DNA from: Patescibacteria group bacterium
GTDB lineage: Bacteria; Patescibacteriota; Microgenomatia; UBA10105; UBA927
Direction: 5' to 3'
Assembly: GCA_038064255.1 (NCBI GenBank)
Contig: JBBTTM010000013.1
Location: forward strand, 1 to 38,003
DNA: 38,003 nt
Part shown: one piece after another, positions 2,948 to 21,549 of the stretch
How positions within the stretch are numbered: the stretch's first letter is position 1
Layout: every line of letters starts with the position of its first letter
Made by a program: the position numbers and the translations under genes
The notes under the pieces: model-generated
The model's database searches: none
Told to the model about the DNA's origin: nothing
What the model saw: only the letters and a program-made list of their open reading frames with translations

Positions 2948-5800
2948 ATGAATGAGCGGATTGATACGCTTGATACACTCAGTATCAACCCTGAGCAAAG
3001 TCGAAGGGTTGAACTAAAAATAAATGGAATGCATTGTCAGTCCTGTGAGATGCTCATAAAAGACGAACTTTCTGCGCTTACCGGGCTTACGGATATTTTT
3101 ATCGATCATAAAACCGGTTCCGGATCACTCGTGGCCACGGATGGTCAGATTTCAGATTCAGTAATACTTGACTCGATAAAGAGTGCTGGCTATCAAGGAT
3201 CGATAGTGCAAACCAATCAAACGAGTAATGGTTTTTCAAAAATTCCATTTGTAAAAGAGACCTCGCCTCTGCAGTCCTTCATTTTTCCGAAAGAAATTGA
3301 ACTTGAAGGAAAAATAGGGAAAAATGAGAATGGGGAACTCATTATTAGAGGAAAATTGCGTTTCGGTTCAGAAGCAAATAATGATCTTCAATCGGTAAGT
3401 AATCATATACAAGCAAAGCCGGATCAACAAATTCAAAGCTCGAAATCAGAACGAACGAGCTTGGTTATTTCCGGCATGCATTGTTCATCCTGTGCATCTA
3501 TTATTGAACGTCAATTGAAAAAAGTTCCGGGAGTTACTGAGGCCCGAGTGAACTTTGCGGCAGAAAAAGCGTCTATACTCTACGATACTGGTATCGCGTC
3601 GTCAGCAGACCTCATACAGGCAGTTGAAAAAGCCGGATACAAAGCTATGCCTGCCGATTCAGAAGATTCAAAGGCGCAGGCAAAAAGACAGCAATCGGAA
3701 ATATCCCACCAGTGGAATAAGTTTTTATTTAGTCTTATCCTGTCGTCTCCCATGATTTATTTTATGCTTCTGGATTTTTTCAGTTTTCTTCCCGGGGCAA
3801 AGACGCTATTACCCTATATTGGCATTGTCTCTTTTGTTCTTGCTACTCCGGTTCAATTTATCACCGGTTCTAGTTTTTATAAAGGCATGGTATCGGCTCT
3901 GAAGATGCGCACTTTTAACATGGATAGTCTTATCGCCATCGGTACGTCGGTTGCATTTTTTTATAGTGCAATCAATTTTATCCAATATTTTCTAACGACG
4001 AAATCAATATTTGGATTAAATGGAGCAAAGATTCCTGAATTATACTTTGAGACAGCAGCATTTCTCATAACATTTGTTATTTTAGGCAAATTTCTGGAAG
4101 CCAAAGCCAAAGGGAGAACAGGAGAGGCGATAAAAAAACTCATGGGGCTTCAAGCGAAAACCGCTAGGGTCGTAAGAAACGGACAAACAATGGATATTCC
4201 TATCGAAGAGGTAGTAAAAAACGATATTATCGTTGTCCGACCAGGGGAAAAAGTTCCTGTCGACGGTGTTATCGTCAAAGGCTCATCTTCAGTAGATGAA
4301 TCCATGATTACCGGAGAAAGTTTACCGGTAGAGAAGCATGTCGAAGACTCAGTCATCGGTGGCACAATAAATAAAGTTGGAAGTTTTGAATTTATGGCTA
4401 CGAGAGTTGGAAACGAGACGACTCTCTCCCAGATTATTCGGCTTGTCGAAGATGCCCAAGGGTCCAAGGCTCCCATCCAGGCTGTGGCTGATAGAATTTC
4501 TGCGTATTTTGTACCAGCGGTCATAGTGATCGCAGCGCTTACGTTTGTCGTGTGGTTTTTTGTACTCGGGTCTTCTCTTTCATTCGCCCTCATGGCATTT
4601 ACCGCAGTCATCGTTATTGCCTGTCCGTGTGCACTCGGTCTTGCAACTCCTACGGCGATTATGGTTGGCACCGGAGTTGGGGCAGAAAATGGCATATTGA
4701 TCAAGGGTGGAGAGCCTTTGGAAAGTGCAAGTACGATAAATACAATTGTGTTTGATAAAACAGGCACTATTACCAAGGGAAAGCCTGAAGTCACGGATAT
4801 AGAAGATATAGGAAATCTAGATGAGGACGAGGTATTGGCACTTTCTGCAAGCCTTGAAAAACAATCAGAACATCCTCTTGCCGAAGCAATCTGCTCGTAT
4901 GCCGATGAGGAAGGCGTACATTTATTTGAGGTTGAAGGATTTTCAGCTATCCCAGGACATGGAGTAAAAGGGATTATAGAAAAGAAAGAGTATTATTTTG
5001 GGAATAGGAAACTGATGAAGGATACTCTCGGTCACGATATGAATAAAATAGAGCGAAAAATGATACGACTGGAGGAACAGGGAAAAACGGCTATGATCTT
5101 AGCATCAAAAGAGAGCGTGTTGGGTATTATCGCTGTTGCAGATACGGTAAAAGAATCGTCACGGGAGGCGGTAGAAATGCTACAGAAAAAAGGCATTGAA
5201 GTATGGATGATTACCGGTGACAATATGAGAACAGCCAAAGCGATAGCATCTCAGGTTGGAATTGAAAAGGTATTAGCTGAGGTGTTACCGCAGGATAAAG
5301 CCAATGAAGTGAAAAAGCTTCAAGACGCTGGGAAAAAGGTGGCCATGGTGGGAGATGGTATAAACGATGCTCCGGCTCTGGCTCAGGCAGACCTTGGTAT
5401 TGCCATGGGATCCGGCACTGATGTTGCTATGGAAACCGGTGGGATAGTTATCATAAAAAATGATCTTCGGGATGTCGTACACGCGCTTGATCTGTCCAAG
5501 ACCACGGTACAAAAAATTCAACAGAATATGTTTTTTGCCCTGTTTTATAATGTCATCGGTATTCCGATAGCAGCCCGTATTTTTGCAGGTATTGGACTAG
5601 TATTAAAGCCGGAGCTTGCGGGTCTTGCCATGGCATTAAGCTCCGTTTCTGTAGTGAGTAATTCGCTTCTGCTTCGAAGGTATAAGCCGGGGAAGAAAAA
5701 CTATCTATCTATGTTTGCGCCGGTCATCATGATGGTAGCGTTTACGCTATTGTTTATTGAGTTTGCGCGGTTTAGTTCCACCATGGCAACTCCCAGGTAA
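2948..5800 (+). CDS. copA: Copper-translocating P1B-1 ATPase with two N-terminal HMA domains
   Basis: GMHCQSCE and [11 protein letters not shown] motifs, [14 protein letters not shown] (CPC), [41 protein letters not shown], and the NX6YNX4P plus MALSS TM motifs. AAGGA SD upstream. Confidence 0.95.
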
Positions 5801-14990: not shown

Positions 14991-15791
14991 TTATCCTACC
15001 AAAAAGAGATACGATACGGCAATAAGTATTCTATATACCCCAAATCCAAAAAAAGATGAATGCTTTATATATGAGAGAAAACCTCTGATTGTCACAAGAG
15101 CAGTGACAAAGGACACCACCATTCCGATTCCAATGAGCATCCATTCAGAAGAAGAAAATGAAAAGCCGGTTTTTAGTAGATCAAGTCCGGTTGCAGCTAG
15201 CATGGTCGGAAGCGCCAGAAGAAATGAGTATTCTACTGCTTCTACTTTTGACATGCCGACACCCATTGCTCCGATTATGGTTGCCGCAGCTCTCGAGACG
15301 CCGGGTATGACAGAGAGAGATTGGCAAAGTCCTATAATGATTGCTTTTATGGGAGTAAGCGTCGTTAATTTGTTCGTATCTGGTTTTGGTTTTATGATTT
15401 TGTCGATAAAAAGAAGTACTATGCCGCCCAGAAACAATGCCGCAACAGCGACATACGGATTTCCGAGTAGAAATTGTTTTATGACTTTATAGAGTACGAG
15501 TCCGACGATGGCGGTGGGAATAAATGAAAAGAGGAGAGGTTTTATAATTTCCGGATGTGCAATAAATTTTTTCACATAGAGGAAAAATACTGCTCCGATT
15601 GCACCGAGTTGGATGATAATTTCAAAACTTTTTGTAAATTCCGTGGGCGTGATGCCAAGTATTTTTGATGCAAGGATCATATGTCCTGTGGAGGAAATGG
15701 GAAGAAATTCAGTTATTCCCTCTATAATAGACAGAATTATGGTTTGGATGAGCGTCATATAATGAATCATTGTATCTAAAACGGAAAGCAT
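14991..15791 (-). CDS. uppP: Undecaprenyl-diphosphate phosphatase (BacA/UppP)
   Basis: EGITEFLPISSTGH and IPGVSRAAAT motifs in an 8-TM protein. The true start may be an internal Met (MTLIQTI). Confidence 0.9.
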   Translation of the reverse strand: MLSVLDTMIHYMTLIQTIILSIIEGITEFLPISSTGHMILASKILGITPTEFTKSFEIIIQLGAIGAVFFLYVKKFIAHPEIIKPLLFSFIPTAIVGLVLYKVIKQFLLGNPYVAVAALFLGGIVLLFIDKIIKPKPDTNKLTTLTPIKAIIIGLCQSLSVIPGVSRAAATIIGAMGVGMSKVEAVEYSFLLALPTMLAATGLDLLKTGFSFSSSEWMLIGIGMVVSFVTALVTIRGFLSYIKHSSFFGFGVYRILIAVSYLFLVG

Positions 15792-16028
15792 GCGTCAAAG
15801 ACCAGATTTAGTAGTACTTTTTATAGACGCGGGACGGAGTACTTCAAAAATAGCAAATAAAAATCATTATCGGTTATTGTAAGATACCTCACAATGTAGG
15901 CACGGCCCTCTTTACTTCTGTGATTCATCTGATCTAACCTTATATTATACCTGTATTTATATTTTTGTGTTCATTTTGTAAAAACACTATAGGTTTGTGA
16001 AACCTATCCGAAGGGAGGTGAAATATAT

Positions 16029-16592
16029 ATGAAACGAATACTTTTTGCTCTCGCGGCACTTTCAATTGCAGTCGGCACAGGTTTTGCTACGACGCGAGCA
16101 GTCTGGACAGACACAGTAACGGTTGCTTCTAATCAGGTGGTTACCGGCACGACGGATTTGCAGGTCAGTACAGATAACGCAGTTACGTGGAGTACGACAT
16201 CCATGTCATCAGCGTTTAATCTTATCGGGATAATTCCTGGTCCAGTCAGTCCTGGTACGTATGCATTTTCTCTAAAGAATCTTTCTTCAAGTCCATTGAA
16301 TTTTACTTTAGGGGGAAGGATTACTCCTGCTACTGTCATTGCCGGATCACCGGATAAAACAAAACTTTTGATTCAGATTTATGACATAGATACTCCAGCA
16401 GATGCTACAGCATGGAAGACATTAGCTGAATGGGAAGCGGCCAGCGCAGGCGGGATAATTTTTAACTCAACATTAAATAATGGAGTAACAAAGCGGTACG
16501 GAATAAAGGTTCAGCTTGACGGAACGGCAGATAATACGTGGCAAGGAAAAACGGTAACATTTTCTATTGAAGCCATGGGAACACAGATATAA
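16029..16592 (+). CDS. Secreted TasA/camelysin-like protein with a SipW-cognate-type signal peptide
   Basis: GGGAGGTGA SD. Signal MKRILFALAALSIAVGTGFATTRAVWTD followed by ASNQVVTGTTDL (compare B. subtilis TasA ...GGGTWAAFND...FASGTLDL). C-terminal ADNTWQGKTVTFSIEAMGTQ resembles the GNxYQGK...F motif of the family. Confidence 0.65.
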   Translation: MKRILFALAALSIAVGTGFATTRAVWTDTVTVASNQVVTGTTDLQVSTDNAVTWSTTSMSSAFNLIGIIPGPVSPGTYAFSLKNLSSSPLNFTLGGRITPATVIAGSPDKTKLLIQIYDIDTPADATAWKTLAEWEAASAGGIIFNSTLNNGVTKRYGIKVQLDGTADNTWQGKTVTFSIEAMGTQI

Positions 16593-16659
16593 GTTTTTGG
16601 TTTTTTGGGGTCACGGCTTCCCGTTGGGTTGTCGTGGCTTCCTCTTGAGCCAAAAACTT
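16591..16659 (+). promoter_or_regulatory. Perfect 10-bp inverted repeat (aagtttttgg / ccaaaaactt) spanning the whole gap between the TasA-like gene and the peptidase-fusion gene
   Basis: The arms at 16591-16600 and 16650-16659 are read directly. The 49-nt loop contains the direct repeats cacggcttcc and cgtggcttcc. The right arm ends 1 nt before the ATG at 16661. Confidence 0.45.
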
Positions 16660-16660
16660 T

Positions 16661-19600
16661 ATGAAGTATTTGCGATCAGCATTAAAATGGATAGGATGTA
16701 TCCTGAACTTTGCGAAGGGTTCGGCGTTTGTGGTGGTTGTTGGCCTTGGATTGCTTTCGCTTCTTGCTTCAACTAGCTTGCCCTGGCAACTGCCATATAA
16801 ACCATTTATCGTTACTTCCGGAAGCATGCGGCCAACCATCTCGGAAGGATCAGTCGTGTTTGTGGATCGAAGAACCAGTGATGTTAAGGCTGGGGATATC
16901 GTTACGTTTTTCCGGCCGGACAATGTACGGGAAAATGTAACTCATAGAATCGTTTCGATAGATGCAAAGGAAGATAAAATTTTCTACAAAACCAAAGGTG
17001 ATGCGAACGACTCTGAAGATGCCTGGGCAGTAAGACGTGAGGCCTTATGGGGAAAAGTAGTATTTCATATTCCGTGGTTAGGATTCTTAATGAGTTTCAC
17101 CAAAACCAGGCCAGGGGTCCTTCTGATAGTTGTTTTACCGCTTACAGTCATTGCTATCGACGAACTCCGAATTATTTTTCAGGAAATTAGTAAGATACGA
17201 AAGAAAAAAGCTAAGAAAGATAATCCATCGAACACCTCTGTTATTGCACTACTGCTTTTGATTTCCTACGGTTTTTTTGCCACAACCATGGGTACGACGA
17301 TGAGCGGTTTCACCGATACGACATCGGCTACAGATCAAGAGGTCGTCACGTCTTGTTGGGTGGCGCCAAGTGCTGTATCTCAGCTTTTGCCTCCGGATAA
17401 TGCAAATACAAATACCACGGACATTTCGTTTAGTTGGTCGTCGACAACTTCGAGTTGTCCTATTGCGACACTCACATATAACGTTCGTGTATATACAGAC
17501 GTTGGCCTCACGACGCTCTATGGAGAATCCGGGTATGGTGTTGGTTTATCGGGAACATTCACTTCTGTTCCCGAAGGAGAGTATTGGTGGGAAGTGCGCG
17601 CAAAGGATCAATATGCCAATGTGTCGTCGAGCGGTTCACGGCACCTAATTGTAGACAGAACATCATCATTGGCGTCACTTTCTGTAACCGGATCAGGATA
17701 TAAGGTCGTAGAAGAAAAAATATCAAACGGAGATTTTGAAAGTGGGGATTTAAGCGGATGGGGGACATTTGGCAGTGTAAACGTTTTAAGTTCTGATGCT
17801 GTTTTGACTCCTGTAACTTCGGTTTTGCCATATGAAGGAAGTTCAATGGTCCGGGTAGGTGATACGACTGATTCCGGTTCAGGAAATTTTGTCTGGGAAA
17901 ATAGACTTATGCAATCTGTGTCTACTGGCGCCAAGAGTCTGTCGCTTTATTATAATTTTTTTACTCGTGACGATGCACCTTTTGACGATCCTGGTTTTTT
18001 TATACGGCTAAACGGTCAAAATATTTTTACCAAGAGATCCGGTGATGTTGCAGGAATATTCGGAGATGCCAGATCAACGGGGTGGAATCAATTCACATAT
18101 AACTTAAGCTTGGTTACAGATTCGATGACAAATCTTGCATTTTATGCCGGGAATACCGGCGACAAAGATAATCAATCATGGGTGTATCTGGATAAAATTA
18201 CTACGTATTATGTTACTGCCCGGGGAACAGCGGATTATGATCTGATAGGTACAGACAGTCTATCTGGCGTGGCGTATTGTGAATACAAAGAAGGAGCAGG
18301 CGGAACGTGGACAACATTTGCATCTGCGTTTCAAATACCCACTTCGGGAAGCCATGATCTTTCGTATCGATGTGTCGACAATGCCGGAAATGTTGGGGCA
18401 ATTTCGCTTGTAAAGGTTATTACAGATATTGATGCGCCTGAAGTGATTACGGATTTTAGCGTTGTTTCCTCGACCTACAATACTGCAACGCTTCAATGGA
18501 CTGCGCCAGGAAATGACGGTGCTGGATCAACGACTAGGAGCGCATCGTATGACGTGAGATATTCTCTGACGGATATCACTGATGATGCATCTTTTGACGC
18601 GGCCATGAGCGTAGAAAATGTACCGGCTCCTAAGCCCGTTGGTGAAACAGAAACACTTGAAATAATTGGATTAAATCCGTCTACGACGTATTATTTTGCA
18701 GTTAAAGCGAAAGATGAAGCACCAAATACATCTTTATTATCAAATGTATCATCGGTTACGACTCTTGTAGGATCGCCAATAAATCCGGGAGATATTATCA
18801 TAAATGAACTTATGTGGTCCGGATCGAGCATAACCGAAAATGATGAATGGATTGAGCTTAAAAATATGACGGATAGAACGTTAGATATTACAGGTTTATC
18901 CATAACGCGACTGGCAGGTGGAGCAGACGTCTCTATGATTCCAGTCTCAAGTTTCGTAGGAAAAACGATTGCGCCATATGGATATTTTCTCTTGAGTCAC
19001 TTTGTAAATACTTCATCGAAGATAAAGGATACAGTTATTCCTAATATTGTTGATTCAGGTGTAAATCTTTCAGATACTGAGCTTGAGATTAAGCTGTATA
19101 GTGGTGCAATTCTTATCGATACTGCATGGGATGGTACAGCGCCAACAGAAGGAATCAGCGATACTATCAATGGAAAGTATTATTCCATGGAGAGAACAGG
19201 TGTTCCAGGTGATGGGGCGAATCCGCTCAACTGGTATACGTGTATCGATAGCGCTTCGACGACGGACTATTTTGACGGTGGTACGGATGAACGAGGAACG
19301 CCGGGTGCAAAAAATAGGTCAGAAAATGAACCTCTAGCACATCAATTTATATTGAATAGAGATATTGTTCAATATTCAACAGATAGTGCAACCATATCAG
19401 CGGTATATATACGATTGAGTAATGAAAGTATACAGACAGAAAGTACTCAATCTGCGAGTCAGTCAGCGACAAAAGCAGTGATTACTCCAAGAGTGGAGAT
19501 TTCGCGATCAACAGATGGAAAATCTCTTTCATTCACAATTATAGATGTCTCTTCGTATGTTTTTCTCTCGTATGAGCTTACGTATGATTCTTCCATCGGA

Positions 19601-19792
19601 ACACAGGGTGTTGTCGGGAAATCGGTACTTCACGGCGATTCACAGTTTGTAAAAAACGACATTCTTCTTGGCACATGTTCTACTGGAGGAATCTGCGCGT
19701 ATCATGCTGACGTGAAAAATCTTGCAATACACGTGACACTTGTCGATAGCAACGGAGATGTAATAAAAATTCAGGGAAGCGAGTCACCATGA
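16661..19792 (+). CDS. SipW-type (S26B) signal peptidase I fused to an internal signal peptide and a large multi-domain ectodomain (Ig-like, CBM/jelly-roll-like, Ig-like, FN3, lamin-tail domain, unknown C-terminal domain)
   Basis: N-terminal TM; SGSMRPT (Ser55, 16823-16825); THRIV (His95, 16943-16945); KGDAN; second TM at aa 150-172; basic loop KIRKKKAKK; third hydrophobic segment with TTMSGFTDTTSA. Then NGDFESGDLSGWG (CBM-like), LQWTAPGNDG...YYFAVKAKDEAPN (FN3), and IINELMWSGS...DEWIELKN...GTPGAKN (LTD). Confidence 0.8.
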   Translation: MKYLRSALKWIGCILNFAKGSAFVVVVGLGLLSLLASTSLPWQLPYKPFIVTSGSMRPTISEGSVVFVDRRTSDVKAGDIVTFFRPDNVRENVTHRIVSIDAKEDKIFYKTKGDANDSEDAWAVRREALWGKVVFHIPWLGFLMSFTKTRPGVLLIVVLPLTVIAIDELRIIFQEISKIRKKKAKKDNPSNTSVIALLLLISYGFFATTMGTTMSGFTDTTSATDQEVVTSCWVAPSAVSQLLPPDNANTNTTDISFSWSSTTSSCPIATLTYNVRVYTDVGLTTLYGESGYGVGLSGTFTSVPEGEYWWEVRAKDQYANVSSSGSRHLIVDRTSSLASLSVTGSGYKVVEEKISNGDFESGDLSGWGTFGSVNVLSSDAVLTPVTSVLPYEGSSMVRVGDTTDSGSGNFVWENRLMQSVSTGAKSLSLYYNFFTRDDAPFDDPGFFIRLNGQNIFTKRSGDVAGIFGDARSTGWNQFTYNLSLVTDSMTNLAFYAGNTGDKDNQSWVYLDKITTYYVTARGTADYDLIGTDSLSGVAYCEYKEGAGGTWTTFASAFQIPTSGSHDLSYRCVDNAGNVGAISLVKVITDIDAPEVITDFSVVSSTYNTATLQWTAPGNDGAGSTTRSASYDVRYSLTDITDDASFDAAMSVENVPAPKPVGETETLEIIGLNPSTTYYFAVKAKDEAPNTSLLSNVSSVTTLVGSPINPGDIIINELMWSGSSITENDEWIELKNMTDRTLDITGLSITRLAGGADVSMIPVSSFVGKTIAPYGYFLLSHFVNTSSKIKDTVIPNIVDSGVNLSDTELEIKLYSGAILIDTAWDGTAPTEGISDTINGKYYSMERTGVPGDGANPLNWYTCIDSASTTDYFDGGTDERGTPGAKNRSENEPLAHQFILNRDIVQYSTDSATISAVYIRLSNESIQTESTQSASQSATKAVITPRVEISRSTDGKSLSFTIIDVSSYVFLSYELTYDSSIGTQGVVGKSVLHGDSQFVKNDILLGTCSTGGICAYHADVKNLAIHVTLVDSNGDVIKIQGSESP

Positions 19793-20673
19793 GATTAAAA
19801 GTATTGATACGAATTCTGATTCTCTTTTTTGTCTTTGGATTCTTGCGTGTGTCGGTGAATGCGGCAGATATCAATGTGTCATGTACAGTTGGCGGATGCG
19901 CACCGCATGCTGTAACAGGATTATTTCCAGCTTCGACTATATGGCTACCAGGAACAAGTGTTTCAAAATCTATCCAGGTAGAAAATGCCACTGGCATGAA
20001 GCAGTCTGTGGGACTTCGGACTCAAAATGTTTCGGTTACCGGTAGCGTTGATACTGTTCTAACTATGACGATACGTCAGCTGAATGGAAACACTACAATA
20101 TATTCAGGATCTCTTGAGACTTTTTTTGCAACGCCTTCTTTTACTCTCGATACTCTTGATTCAGCGAAGACCGAGACATATATCTTTACGATAGTCATGC
20201 CAAATACTGCAGGGAATCAGTATCAATCGAAAAGTGCTTTGTTTGACTTGCTTGTAAGCCTTACGGAAATTCAACCAGTAGCGGATAACTCTAAAAATGG
20301 AGGAAGCTCGAGCAGTACATCAAATTCATCTTCAGCCTCAGTGACTTCGGATACTTCATCGACCGAGCCGCAGGGGAGCGGATTATCAATTGGGGAACAG
20401 ACAGGAGAAGCTTTGAGTGAGGGTACTGATGTACTTGGGATTTCAACTCCATCTGCCGGTATTGTGCCAGGGTCTTCGGGTAGTAGTGAAATTCTTGGAT
20501 TTCAGTTTTGTTATCTGTGCATGGTTTTGCCAATTCCGATTATAATTTTATTTGAAATTATTTTTTATTATTTTGGTTTTTTGAGTGAAATTAAAATTAT
20601 ATGGAGGATAATTTTCGGTATAATACTCTATATTTTTTTGTACGGTATTTTTATATTTATATATCGGTTATGA
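19789..20673 (+). CDS. TasA/camelysin-like domain protein with a Sec signal peptide, a Ser-rich stalk and a C-terminal double-TM anchor
   Basis: ATGA start/stop overlap with the upstream gene. Signal ...VSVNA-ADI; PGTSVSKSIQVENATG and NTAGNQYQSKSALFDLLVSL family-like motifs; GGSSSSTSNSSSASVTSDTSST linker; hydrophobic C-terminal ~70 aa. Confidence 0.65.
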   Translation: MRLKVLIRILILFFVFGFLRVSVNAADINVSCTVGGCAPHAVTGLFPASTIWLPGTSVSKSIQVENATGMKQSVGLRTQNVSVTGSVDTVLTMTIRQLNGNTTIYSGSLETFFATPSFTLDTLDSAKTETYIFTIVMPNTAGNQYQSKSALFDLLVSLTEIQPVADNSKNGGSSSSTSNSSSASVTSDTSSTEPQGSGLSIGEQTGEALSEGTDVLGISTPSAGIVPGSSGSSEILGFQFCYLCMVLPIPIIILFEIIFYYFGFLSEIKIIWRIIFGIILYIFLYGIFIFIYRL

Positions 20674-20679
20674 GAGTAC

Positions 20680-21549
20680 TTAAAAAGTCACCCGTATGGT
20701 TATACCACTCGGGAGCAGTCTCCTGAGTGGCCCTGATTCCTGGAGCGCGATTTCGCTAGCTGTTATCTGTCTGGCGCGGTTTCCCAATACACTTGAAACG
20801 AGGTTATATAGTGCGATAGCGGAGAGATCCGCAGTATACGCGTTGAGTATAAGAAATGATGGTTTGTCCGAAAGAATGGTGTTGCACGCTTCAAGCAGGA
20901 GTGGCAAGTTTTCCTCTATTTTAAATACCTGGCCCTTGGATCCTCTTCCAAACCTGGGTGGGTCGAGAATGATGCCGTCATAGACTTGATTTCTTCGTTC
21001 TTCGCGAAGAATAAATGCATATGCGTCGTCCTGAATGAACCGTACTGGTTTATTCTCAAGACCTGAGAGTCTTATATTTTCTTTCGCCCATTCTATTGCG
21101 CTTTTTGCGCTGTCTACATGTGTCACTGACGCGCCATTTTGAAGCCCTATCATTGTCGCCCCTCCGGTATATGCAAAAAGATTGAGGATTTTGACGCTCT
21201 TGCCGGAGACTTGTTTTGCAAGGAAATTCCAGTTGACAGCCTGTTCCGGAAATACTCCGACATGCTTAAATTCGGTAGGACGTAGGGAAAAAGTGATCCC
21301 TTTGAAGGTGATTTTCCAAGAAGCGTTGTCCGGAAGTCGTACCCAGGTGCCTCTTGATCTTGCATCAAAATCATATCGTGCATCAGCTGTATCCCAGATT
21401 TTTCCGTCCAGTGACGGTTTCCAAAGTGCCCGCGGATCAGGACGGATGATCGTATATTTTCCGAATCGTTCGAGTTTTGCATATTCACCGCTGTCGAGAA
21501 GTTCGTATTCACTAAAATCGTTTGTCTGTTCGATTTGGATAGAGTCCAT
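20680..21549 (-). CDS. Class I SAM-dependent methyltransferase (RlmI/YwbD-like RNA methyltransferase catalytic domain)
   Basis: LNLFAYTGGAT (SAM-binding motif I) and IILDPPRFGRG (motif IV). Confidence 0.75.
   Translation of the reverse strand: MDSIQIEQTNDFSEYELLDSGEYAKLERFGKYTIIRPDPRALWKPSLDGKIWDTADARYDFDARSRGTWVRLPDNASWKITFKGITFSLRPTEFKHVGVFPEQAVNWNFLAKQVSGKSVKILNLFAYTGGATMIGLQNGASVTHVDSAKSAIEWAKENIRLSGLENKPVRFIQDDAYAFILREERRNQVYDGIILDPPRFGRGSKGQVFKIEENLPLLLEACNTILSDKPSFLILNAYTADLSAIALYNLVSSVLGNRARQITASEIALQESGPLRRLLPSGITIRVTF

Follow-up and report, generated by a model that had tools for sequence, protein, structure and literature searches.

A SipW-type signal peptidase continuous with a predicted substrate of its own in a fibre operon of a Patescibacteria group bacterium

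Signal peptidases have, to our knowledge, always been described as acting on separate precursors. A 38,003-nt stretch of DNA from a Patescibacteria group bacterium (assembly GCA_038064255.1, contig JBBTTM010000013.1, positions 1 to 38,003 of the forward strand), referred to here in its whole length as the window, raises the question of whether such an enzyme can also be made as one chain with the protein that it cuts. A single open reading frame (ORF) in this window encodes a SipW-type signal peptidase that continues, past its second transmembrane helix (TM2), into an internal signal peptide and a large ectodomain, the passenger. An initial annotation had wondered whether this was an enzyme fused to its own substrate or, alternatively, sipW fused to a TapA-like partner, and the two descriptions prove to be one and the same thing. 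We put at roughly 0.65 the probability that the fused SipW processes its passenger itself, whether in cis or in trans, and so frees a TapA-like minor component of a TasA-type fibre. The coordinates of all features are collected in Table 1.

The N-terminal part of the protein scored 94.6 bits against TIGR02228 (sigpep_I_arch, cut-off 51.85) over residues 20-167, and 27.7 against Pfam Peptidase_S26 (cut-off 22.9). S55, H95, D114 and the whole of G113-D114-A115-N116 did not vary either among 10 or among 56 aligned homologues, in the pattern SGSM...THR...GDAN, and the AlphaFold2 (AF2) model of the catalytic domain, with a predicted local distance difference test score (pLDDT) above 95, found its top PDB matches in human SEC11A/C (7p2p/7p2q, E ~1e-6). 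Judged by its sequence, the peptidase is an endoplasmic reticulum (ER)/archaeal-type signal peptidase I (S26B) with an intact Ser-His pair and predicted activity. Since it scored 97.9 bits against the Bacillus SipW equivalog NF046067 and so missed the cut-off of 190, it is SipW-like and no orthologue of Bacillus SipW. Foldseek searches with the catalytic fold also matched LexA, UmuD and cI, and Pfam S24 was reached at 20.9 bits, under its cut-off of 23.3.

Kyte-Doolittle analysis of the whole ORF gave three hydrophobic segments only, at residues 21-37, 151-168 and 194-207, and none beyond residue 230, while the net charges were +4 at the N-terminus, +6 in the loop of residues 170-193 (eight Lys/Arg) and -3 beyond the third segment. 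This pattern fits a topology in which the N-terminus lies inside, the catalytic domain outside, the Lys-rich loop inside again and the tail outside. The AF2 model of residues 1-262 has helices at 2-37, 150-186 and 192-209, and the proposal that catalytic domain and cleavage motif both lie outside the membrane is one on which hydropathy, the positive-inside rule and AF2 concur. The complete n-h-c signal layout that had been described within the peptidase fusion is likewise present (K178-K186, then VIALLLLISYGFFA, then TTMGTTMS followed by GFTDTTSATD), and its h-region of 14 residues is of a length typical of signal peptides. The interval first singled out, 17195-17335, codes for I179-D225; the basic run KIRKKKAKK attributed to it does exist, but begins one codon earlier, at 17192.

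Whether this third segment is a signal peptide or one more helix can be judged from homologues. Joint Genome Institute (JGI) metagenome contigs were scanned with an alignment of the signal and the first ectodomain domain, and both fused loci (L085, L087 and L098) and split loci (L088, L089, L090/91, L092, L093, L094 and L095-97) were recovered. Split homologues beginning at this very segment, which the initial annotation had named as a thing to look for, were thus found. The split sipW genes encode 167-193 residues with the Lys-rich tail at the end, and their stop codon overlaps the ATG of the ectodomain gene. The products of the latter, of 717-763 residues, are orthologous to the window tail, start with M-(K/R)-h-region-...SNA|EYLDTETSTGNTFAAGCW (one such N-terminal signal reads MAKLFVLLLLLGLSIIPISNA|EYLDTETSTGNTFAAGCW) and share with the window tail the Ig-like domain (YWW.V.A.DQ), the CBM-like region, the fn3 and lamin-tail domains and, at the C-terminus, the domain with C.YH. 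In the split loci that extend further (L091, L093-L095 and L097) the gene order is camelysin/TasA subunit of about 200 residues, sipW, ectodomain gene and a gene for a protein of 200-300 residues that starts with a signal peptide and has a membrane helix at its C-terminus; the shorter contigs end before some of the operon genes. The Lys-rich loop of the fused protein aligns both with the K-rich C-terminal tail of the split SipWs and with the Met-Lys/Arg start of the split ectodomain genes, and on this alignment it serves at once as the tail that ends SipW and as the n-region with which the internal signal starts. Because the initiator Met of the split ectodomains aligns onto the Lys-rich loop of the fused proteins, the window gene corresponds to sipW and the gene after it, with the junction exactly where the signal peptide encoded by the second gene begins.

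A third state was met in L105 (contig SRR22387783_407322, 1-1484), where a stand-alone peptidase of 190 residues, 55% identical to that of the window, lies in an operon of subunit, sipW and third gene, from which the passenger plus its signal is absent. The existence of such an operon indicates that the passenger is a module that can be present or absent. Stand-alone sipW genes were seen in 76 Bacillota loci, where a camelysin-like gene with a cognate signal usually lies downstream, at -55 to +150 nt; with the two genes so closely spaced, the step to a fusion is a short one.

A hidden Markov model (HMM) trained solely on the nine genuine N-terminal signals of the split orthologues was searched against the 680 six-frame ORFs of the window. 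Its best match was at residues ~194-238 of the fusion protein (17.5 bits, E 1.3e-4), and its second was the N-terminus of the neighbouring 187-residue protein. Among the 120 best word-indexed matches to the first 280 residues, 12 proteins run on past TM2 as the window protein does, with a Lys/Arg loop, a hydrophobic core and a site of the form [TSA]-x-[AS]|x-[FY]-[ST]-D...G-x-W. The internal segments of three of these, P0001, P0007 and P0032, scored 21.6, 27.5 and 26.0 bits against TIGR04088 (cognate_SipW), above its cut-off of 19. In the alignment TMS|GFTD of the window stands in register with the canonical xxA|YFSD of the fused homologues, and all the closest of these keep F217 and W233. The scissile bond is predicted from these comparisons at S215|G216 (after nt 17305), within T-M-S|G-F-T-D (residues 213-219), and G211|T212, which also obeys the -3/-1 rule, is a weaker alternative. 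The predicted site keeps small residues at P-3 and P-1 (T213 and S215), an aromatic residue at P2' (F217) and an acidic one at P4' (D219); mature TasA begins at residue 28 (PMC10151520). An ordinary extra transmembrane helix whose flanks resemble a TasA signal by chance might be thought of, the motif being short, rich in Thr/Ser and, in the window, unscored by TIGR04088. Such an origin is very improbable in view of the positional homology to canonical motifs throughout the family, of split genes that begin exactly at this segment, and of the HMM of split orthologues, which finds its best match in the whole window here.

How widespread the arrangement is was assessed at two scales. The four closest species-representative loci are all fused and have the same three-gene operon, at 46-70% identity. 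Two of them, L004 and L005, belong to Candidatus Gottesmanbacteria, and L006 and L007 come from bins labelled Gammaproteobacteria and Pseudomonadales. The latter two (GTDB contigs CAYIWI010000074.1 and CAZDQA010000017.1) present a Patescibacteria-type operon in such metagenome-assembled genomes, and the labels probably reflect mis-binning. A profile search of 1.84 billion cluster representatives gave 41,409 SipW-like proteins at E<=1e-3, of which the best 150 matches, as 50%-identity representatives, are the basis of all counts of fusions, passengers and sites that follow. The profile aligned through the internal signal in one stretch in 115/150 representatives, and a motif scan found a third hydrophobic segment followed by a site in 119-123. 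The passengers of the fused representatives are 18-944 residues long (median 195), and many have lamin-tail, fn3 or Ig-like domains. Across 119 sites, P-3 was T in 88, S in 14 and A in 9 (111 T/S/A together), P-1 was S in 55 and A in 50, P2' was F in 73 and Y in 22, and P4' was D in 71, figures that are informative only as distributions inside the allowed sets, since the detecting pattern had restricted these positions beforehand. A TIGR04088 match at E<=0.01 was obtained for 42 of the 115 internal segments.

On a rough neighbour-joining tree of 254 peptidase domains, parsimony gave ~27 changes between fused and unfused states, a figure to be read with a short domain, a tree without support values and the possibility that truncated proteins count as unfused; fusion or fission would, on this rough estimate, have occurred several independent times. 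At least one passenger, that of P0173, begins with a region that is TasA-like by PF12389 (22.7 bits, cut-off 22.5) and also has a lamin-tail domain, and P0173, P0139, P0147, P0148, P0253 and P0257 have a TasA-like body of the form '..TLDF..PG..' after the signal, not the 'G-x-W' type. From these bodies it appears that SipW has also been fused to proteins like the fibre subunit itself.

With the junction A-rich and an A6 run present in the window, it could be argued that two genes had been merged by a 1-nt error in the tract that encodes the Lys-rich loop, or by misassembly. In the 1.36-kb contig L084 the sipW stop and the ectodomain start do overlap within an A-run (ATGGGTAA), and one base would fuse them (428-1360), so that split and fused states lie one frame step apart inside such a run. 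An error of this kind is nonetheless barely credible for the window. In-frame fusions with differing junction sequences occur in the independent assemblies L004, L005, L006/L085, L007 and L087, some 115-123 of the 150 cluster representatives are fused, and the window loop runs on for seven further codons that are not A-rich before the h-region is reached. An assembly artefact is excluded by this recurrence across representatives and independent assemblies. That SipW alone might be produced by programmed frameshifting or slippage within the A-rich loop was also considered, and was rejected as not conserved in L005, L007 and L087; a -1 shift after the A6 run of the window would stop within ~4 codons, and there is no in-frame X_XXY_YYZ heptamer.

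The next question is which enzyme would cut the passenger. A housekeeping signal peptidase might do so, the fused SipW handling the TasA-like subunit only and the fusion merely coupling expression. No second signal peptidase was found in the window, which shows only 38 kb of the genome, and one may be encoded elsewhere. The site itself, however, is of the SipW-specific kind, with T at P-3 and an aromatic P2', features that hinder the P-type LepB (PMC10269814), and the same signal adjoins sipW in the split operons; cutting by another peptidase is accordingly improbable. An aromatic P2' makes TasA-type sites poor LepB substrates that depend on ER-type SipW (PMC10269814), and for this reason the cutting is probably done by the fused enzyme or by a copy of it.

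What would be released was judged from the residues behind the site. The extension GFTDTTSATDQEVVTSCW parallels the mature start of the TasA-like subunit encoded just upstream, VWTDTVTVASNQVVTGTT. AF2 left residues ~208-227 unstructured (pLDDT ~50) in a model of residues 208-350, in which ~240-332 form an Ig-like sandwich (pLDDT above 90), and this disorder in the monomer suggests that residues 216-233 are a free extension apart from the next domain. Nine homologues, fused and split, all have C232 (17354-17356, ..SCW), where the extension ends, and C266 (17456-17458, ..SSCP), where the Ig-like domain starts; the two probably form a disulfide, which may fix the base of the extension. TIGR04087 (YqxM_for_SipW, cut-off 80) had no match in the window, and relatives reached 15-17 bits over the signal and N-terminus only; the passenger is by these scores not a member of the TapA family, though it may be TapA-like in its working. 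Over 13 loci the N-termini of passenger and subunit agreed better within a locus than between loci (7.5 vs 5.5 identities of 16, permutation p ~3e-4, shared ancestry being ignored by the permutation).

In TasA fibres each subunit passes the strand at its mature N-terminus on to its neighbour (PMC9674648, PMC10151520). TapA has a similar stretch at its own mature N-terminus, of which residues 44-57 are enough for biofilm formation; it donates this N-terminus to TasA and is taken to be the source of the first strand (PMC9674648, PMC10151520). The third protein of the window operon has an ordinary signal (VNA|ADINVSC), a CxxGGC/CxxSGC motif, a Ser/Thr/Pro-rich linker and C-terminal membrane helices. 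Compared with subunit families by hhalign it gave 96.6% and 93.7%, with a gap exactly at the position of the donor strand, and it is a candidate for a TasA-like body without N-terminal strand that anchors the fibre in the membrane.

These elements can be put together as follows. The first helix (TM1) would insert with its N-terminus inside, placing the catalytic domain outside, and TM2 would return the chain to the cytoplasm; the Lys-rich loop would then stay inside while the third hydrophobic segment, acting as internal signal peptide, exports the tail of ~830 residues. The SipW active site of the same chain, or that of a neighbouring copy, would cut after T-M-S215; the peptidase would remain in the membrane with three helices, the signal peptide being one of them, freeing a protein that starts with GFTDTTSATDQEVVTSCW. 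The freed N-terminus, being of the type of the subunit donor strand, would probably enter the open groove of a subunit, so that the fibre is primed or capped by the passenger, whose Ig-like, fn3 and lamin-tail domains are thereby put on display, and the third protein, with its strandless TasA-like body and membrane anchor, would hold the opposite end. This suggests a polar fibre, with an anchored base that has a groove only, subunits that have strand and groove, and a cap or initiator that has a strand only and carries the adhesive domains. As the cap sits at the far end of the fibre in such a model, the passenger would have to be cut from SipW.

Several points, besides the shared ancestry that the permutation ignores, weigh against cleavage and fibre assembly as just described. 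As a separate sequence, residues 178-267 of the window gave no match to TIGR04088 even at E<=10, and since the motif alone thus fails the curated class, the assignment as a signal rests on homologues. The motif is degenerate (GFTD vs AYFSD, with Gly at P1' and Met at P-2), and its internal position, from residue 178 after the peptidase, departs from the N-terminal location of that class. The AF2 model of residues 1-262 showed no confident docking of the site onto the active site, residues 210-215 being coil with pLDDT below 50; cis cleavage is in consequence backed by proximity alone, and the loop between helices 2 and 3 spans ~7 to ~75 residues among fused proteins. The third protein resembles TasA only remotely (93.7-96.6% by hhalign), and the model of fibre polarity is built on analogy with TasA/TapA and AbpA/AbpB. 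The ectodomain frame of L084 has an in-frame TAG where relatives have Asp/Asn, which may point to recoding, to a pseudogene or to an error of sequencing; L084 is not relied on, and the other split loci are free of this problem. Finally, what the sequences show is the architecture, the intact active site, the topology by sequence rules, the kinship of the segment with genuine N-terminal signals, the kept site features and the operon; strand donation, polarity, the mode of cutting in cis or in trans and cleavage itself are inferred.

The last of these points also favours a signal-anchor that stays uncleaved, by which the ectodomain would remain tied to SipW as a membrane adhesin or as a platform holding the first fibre subunit. 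The regular 18-residue helix that AF2 gives at 192-209, without docking of the site, would suit such an anchor, as would the score of the window motif below the TIGR04088 threshold, and TapA has been reported to localise with the membrane (PMC10151520). Against it, the segment has orthologues in the N-terminal signals of separately encoded proteins, which must be cut or anchored alike; site features are kept in ~119 fused representatives, beyond the needs of a mere anchor; the hydrophobic core has just 14 residues; and the operon already has an anchored TasA-like protein, so that two anchored ends would form a loop. We therefore regard an uncleaved anchor as unlikely, if worth keeping in mind, and prefer cleavage of the passenger by the fused SipW.

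A stricter form of self-processing can be imagined. The chain would be an obligate enzyme-substrate pair, whose first act of catalysis is the intramolecular removal of its passenger; the signal would stay for good next to the substrate groove as a third helix, one fibre initiator would have to be launched before the peptidase ceased to be inactive or occupied, and the arrangement would have been reinvented often through 1-nt changes in the A-rich Lys-loop. We consider this doubtful. Were it true, each active peptidase would mark exactly one primed TasA-like fibre, and initiation, stoichiometry and location would be coupled.

Table 1. Features of the fusion gene, its passenger and its operon neighbours in the window (nt, nucleotide positions; aa, residues)
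Feature	Position	Strand	Basis or remark
SipW-type signal peptidase + internal signal peptide + ectodomain	16661..19792	+	one ORF, 1043 aa
Peptidase TM1, predicted N-in signal anchor (aa 21-37)	16721..16771	+	hydropathy; AF2 helix 2-37
Catalytic domain, ER/archaeal-type SPase I (aa 40-147)	16778..17101	+	TIGR02228; invariant catalytic residues; AF2
Catalytic positions	Ser55, 16823-16825; His95, 16943-16945; GDAN, aa 113-116	+	
TM2 (aa 151-168), out-to-in; stand-alone SipW proteins are nearly over here	17111..17164	+	hydropathy, homologues, AF2
Cytoplasmic Lys-rich loop (aa 169-193), with A6 run (17201-17206)	17165..17239	+	net charge +6; homologue alignment
h-region VIALLLLISYGFFA (14 residues, aa 194-207)	17240..17281	+	hydropathy; alignment; signal HMM; AF2
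c-region TTMGTTMS (aa 208-215)	17282..17305	+	register from homologues and TasA T-W-A|A-F-N-D
N-terminal extension GFTDTTSATDQEVVTSCW (aa 216-233), TasA/TapA-type, candidate donor strand	17306..17359	+	conservation, co-variation, AF2 disorder
Semi-specific peptide from the predicted released N-terminus, GFTDTTSATDQEVVTSCWVAPSAVSQLLPPDNANTNTTDISFSWSSTTSSCPIATLTYNVR			
Ectodomain (aa 234-1043)	17360..19789	+	
Ig-like domain	~aa 240-332	+	AF2, conservation
CBM-like region	within ectodomain	+	shared with split orthologues
OmpL47-type barrel	18239-18415	+	
fn3	18449-18721	+	
Lamin-tail domain	18782-19039	+	
Conserved C-terminal domain, LGTCSxGxCxYH (aa 940-1043)	19478-19789	+	outside any Pfam family
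TasA/camelysin-like major subunit, 187 aa	16029..16592	+	family profile comparison
Subunit signal peptide (aa 1-24), predicted cut T-R-A|V-W-T-D	16029-16100	+	
Subunit donor-strand-like mature N-terminus VWTDTVTVASNQVVTGTT	16101-16154	+	
Intercistronic RNA hairpin in 68-nt gap, ends at fusion ATG	16591..16660	+	minimum free energy -36.2 kcal/mol, z -6.4
Third operon gene, 294 aa, start overlaps fusion stop (ATGA)	19789..20673	+	conserved downstream of fused and split forms

The subunit gene upstream of the fusion was examined in the same manner. Its product gave no Pfam family at E<=0.1, PF12389 included, and its 294-residue neighbour had no Pfam match either. The signal ...TTRA|VWTDTV, to which the initial annotation had likened the internal one, is indeed there, and matches TIGR04088 weakly, at 16.2 bits under the cut-off of 19. 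When the family of this subunit (A4) was compared with the PF12389-positive subunits of the split operons (41-49 bits), hhalign gave 98.9% with E 2.6e-17 over 173 columns, and this family match justifies the label 'TasA-like'. The hairpin between the subunit gene and the fusion was more stable than any of 200 shuffled sequences (0/200 as stable) and recurs at the equivalent position in L005, L006, L001, L002 and L003, with differing stem sequences; it may tune the expression of the major against the minor gene, towards a high ratio of subunit to accessory protein, or mask a ribosome site. A scan for promoters and terminators over 15750-20900 gave nothing beyond shuffled expectation.

As for the passenger, its C-terminal domain of ~100 residues recurs at the C-terminus of split ectodomains (L093 and L094), and it lies directly after the N-terminal extension in the short fused proteins P0006, P0011, P0134 and P0255. 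Elsewhere in the window, positions 912-2717 encode a protein of 601 residues with heavy-metal-associated, DsbD_2 membrane and cupredoxin-like domains, which adjoins a copper-type P-type ATPase (2948-5800), and the other genes are housekeeping ones (znuABC-like, uppP, cyclophilin, the Suf operon, PFOR and Lon).

The closest known parallels are the split Patescibacteria operons L088-L097, which have the same four modules in identical order with orthologous ectodomain and third proteins, and which differ in that sipW and the ectodomain gene are separate and overlapping and that the signal is N-terminal and canonical (...SNA|EYLDTETSTGNTFAAGCW). The tapA-sipW-tasA operon of B. subtilis is alike in that a dedicated Ser-His signal peptidase is encoded with a fibre subunit and a minor protein, in that the mature N-terminus of the minor protein resembles the subunit donor strand, and in that the substrates have a TasA-type site with small P-3/P-1 and an aromatic P2'. 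The overlap of the tapA stop with the sipW start in B. subtilis has been read as pointing to an association (PMC10151520). In contrast, the window order is subunit, sipW and minor protein, the last two being one polypeptide with an internal signal (residues 178-215); the passenger is no TapA homologue and carries Ig-like, fn3 and lamin-tail domains; and the window operon, whose host is one of the Patescibacteria and, by its closest loci, most probably Microgenomates/Gottesmanbacteria-like, adds a membrane-anchored protein with a putative TasA-like body.

In what PMC9674648 conveys of Terra et al. (2012), B. subtilis SipW is 'bifunctional', with a functional C-terminal tail of ~20 residues that is regulatory. 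The likeness is that the region after TM2 has an extra function; in the window, however, this tail is a predicted exported protein of ~830 residues with its own signal. In Pyrobaculum calidifontis, AbpB is a larger, beta-rich partner that has been proposed as an adhesin and as the donor of the first complementing strand (PMC9245690). The AbpA/AbpB bundling pili, likened here by description, also set a TasA-like donor-strand subunit beside a bigger beta-rich partner, but their archaeal operon has neither a dedicated peptidase nor a fusion.

As Ser-dyad proteases that cut their own chain and have a catalytic fold related to that of the window enzyme by Foldseek, the clan SF self-cleavers LexA, UmuD and lambda cI (family S24) are the nearest precedents for self-processing. 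LexA cleaves itself in cis and UmuD in trans. These proteins are soluble, Ser-Lys and RecA-stimulated, whereas the window enzyme is by prediction a Ser-His protease of the membrane whose cut site is a signal c-region. Full-text searches of the literature brought up no account of a fusion between a signal peptidase and its substrate, nor of this operon in Patescibacteria; the sole related item that we found there was a distribution survey noting TasA homologues in the phylum.

A natural and widespread chain of enzyme and precursor would be a ready system for studying how a signal peptide is engaged in the membrane and whether it is cut in cis or in trans. Such a fusion can also address the fate of a signal peptide that does not diffuse away and the features that confer SipW specificity, and the fused, split and passenger-absent states serve as natural controls. 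For the organisms themselves, the findings show that ultra-small Patescibacteria carry complete TasA-type fibre operons with a candidate tip or nucleator and a candidate anchor, which is relevant to the attachment of episymbionts to their hosts or to surfaces.

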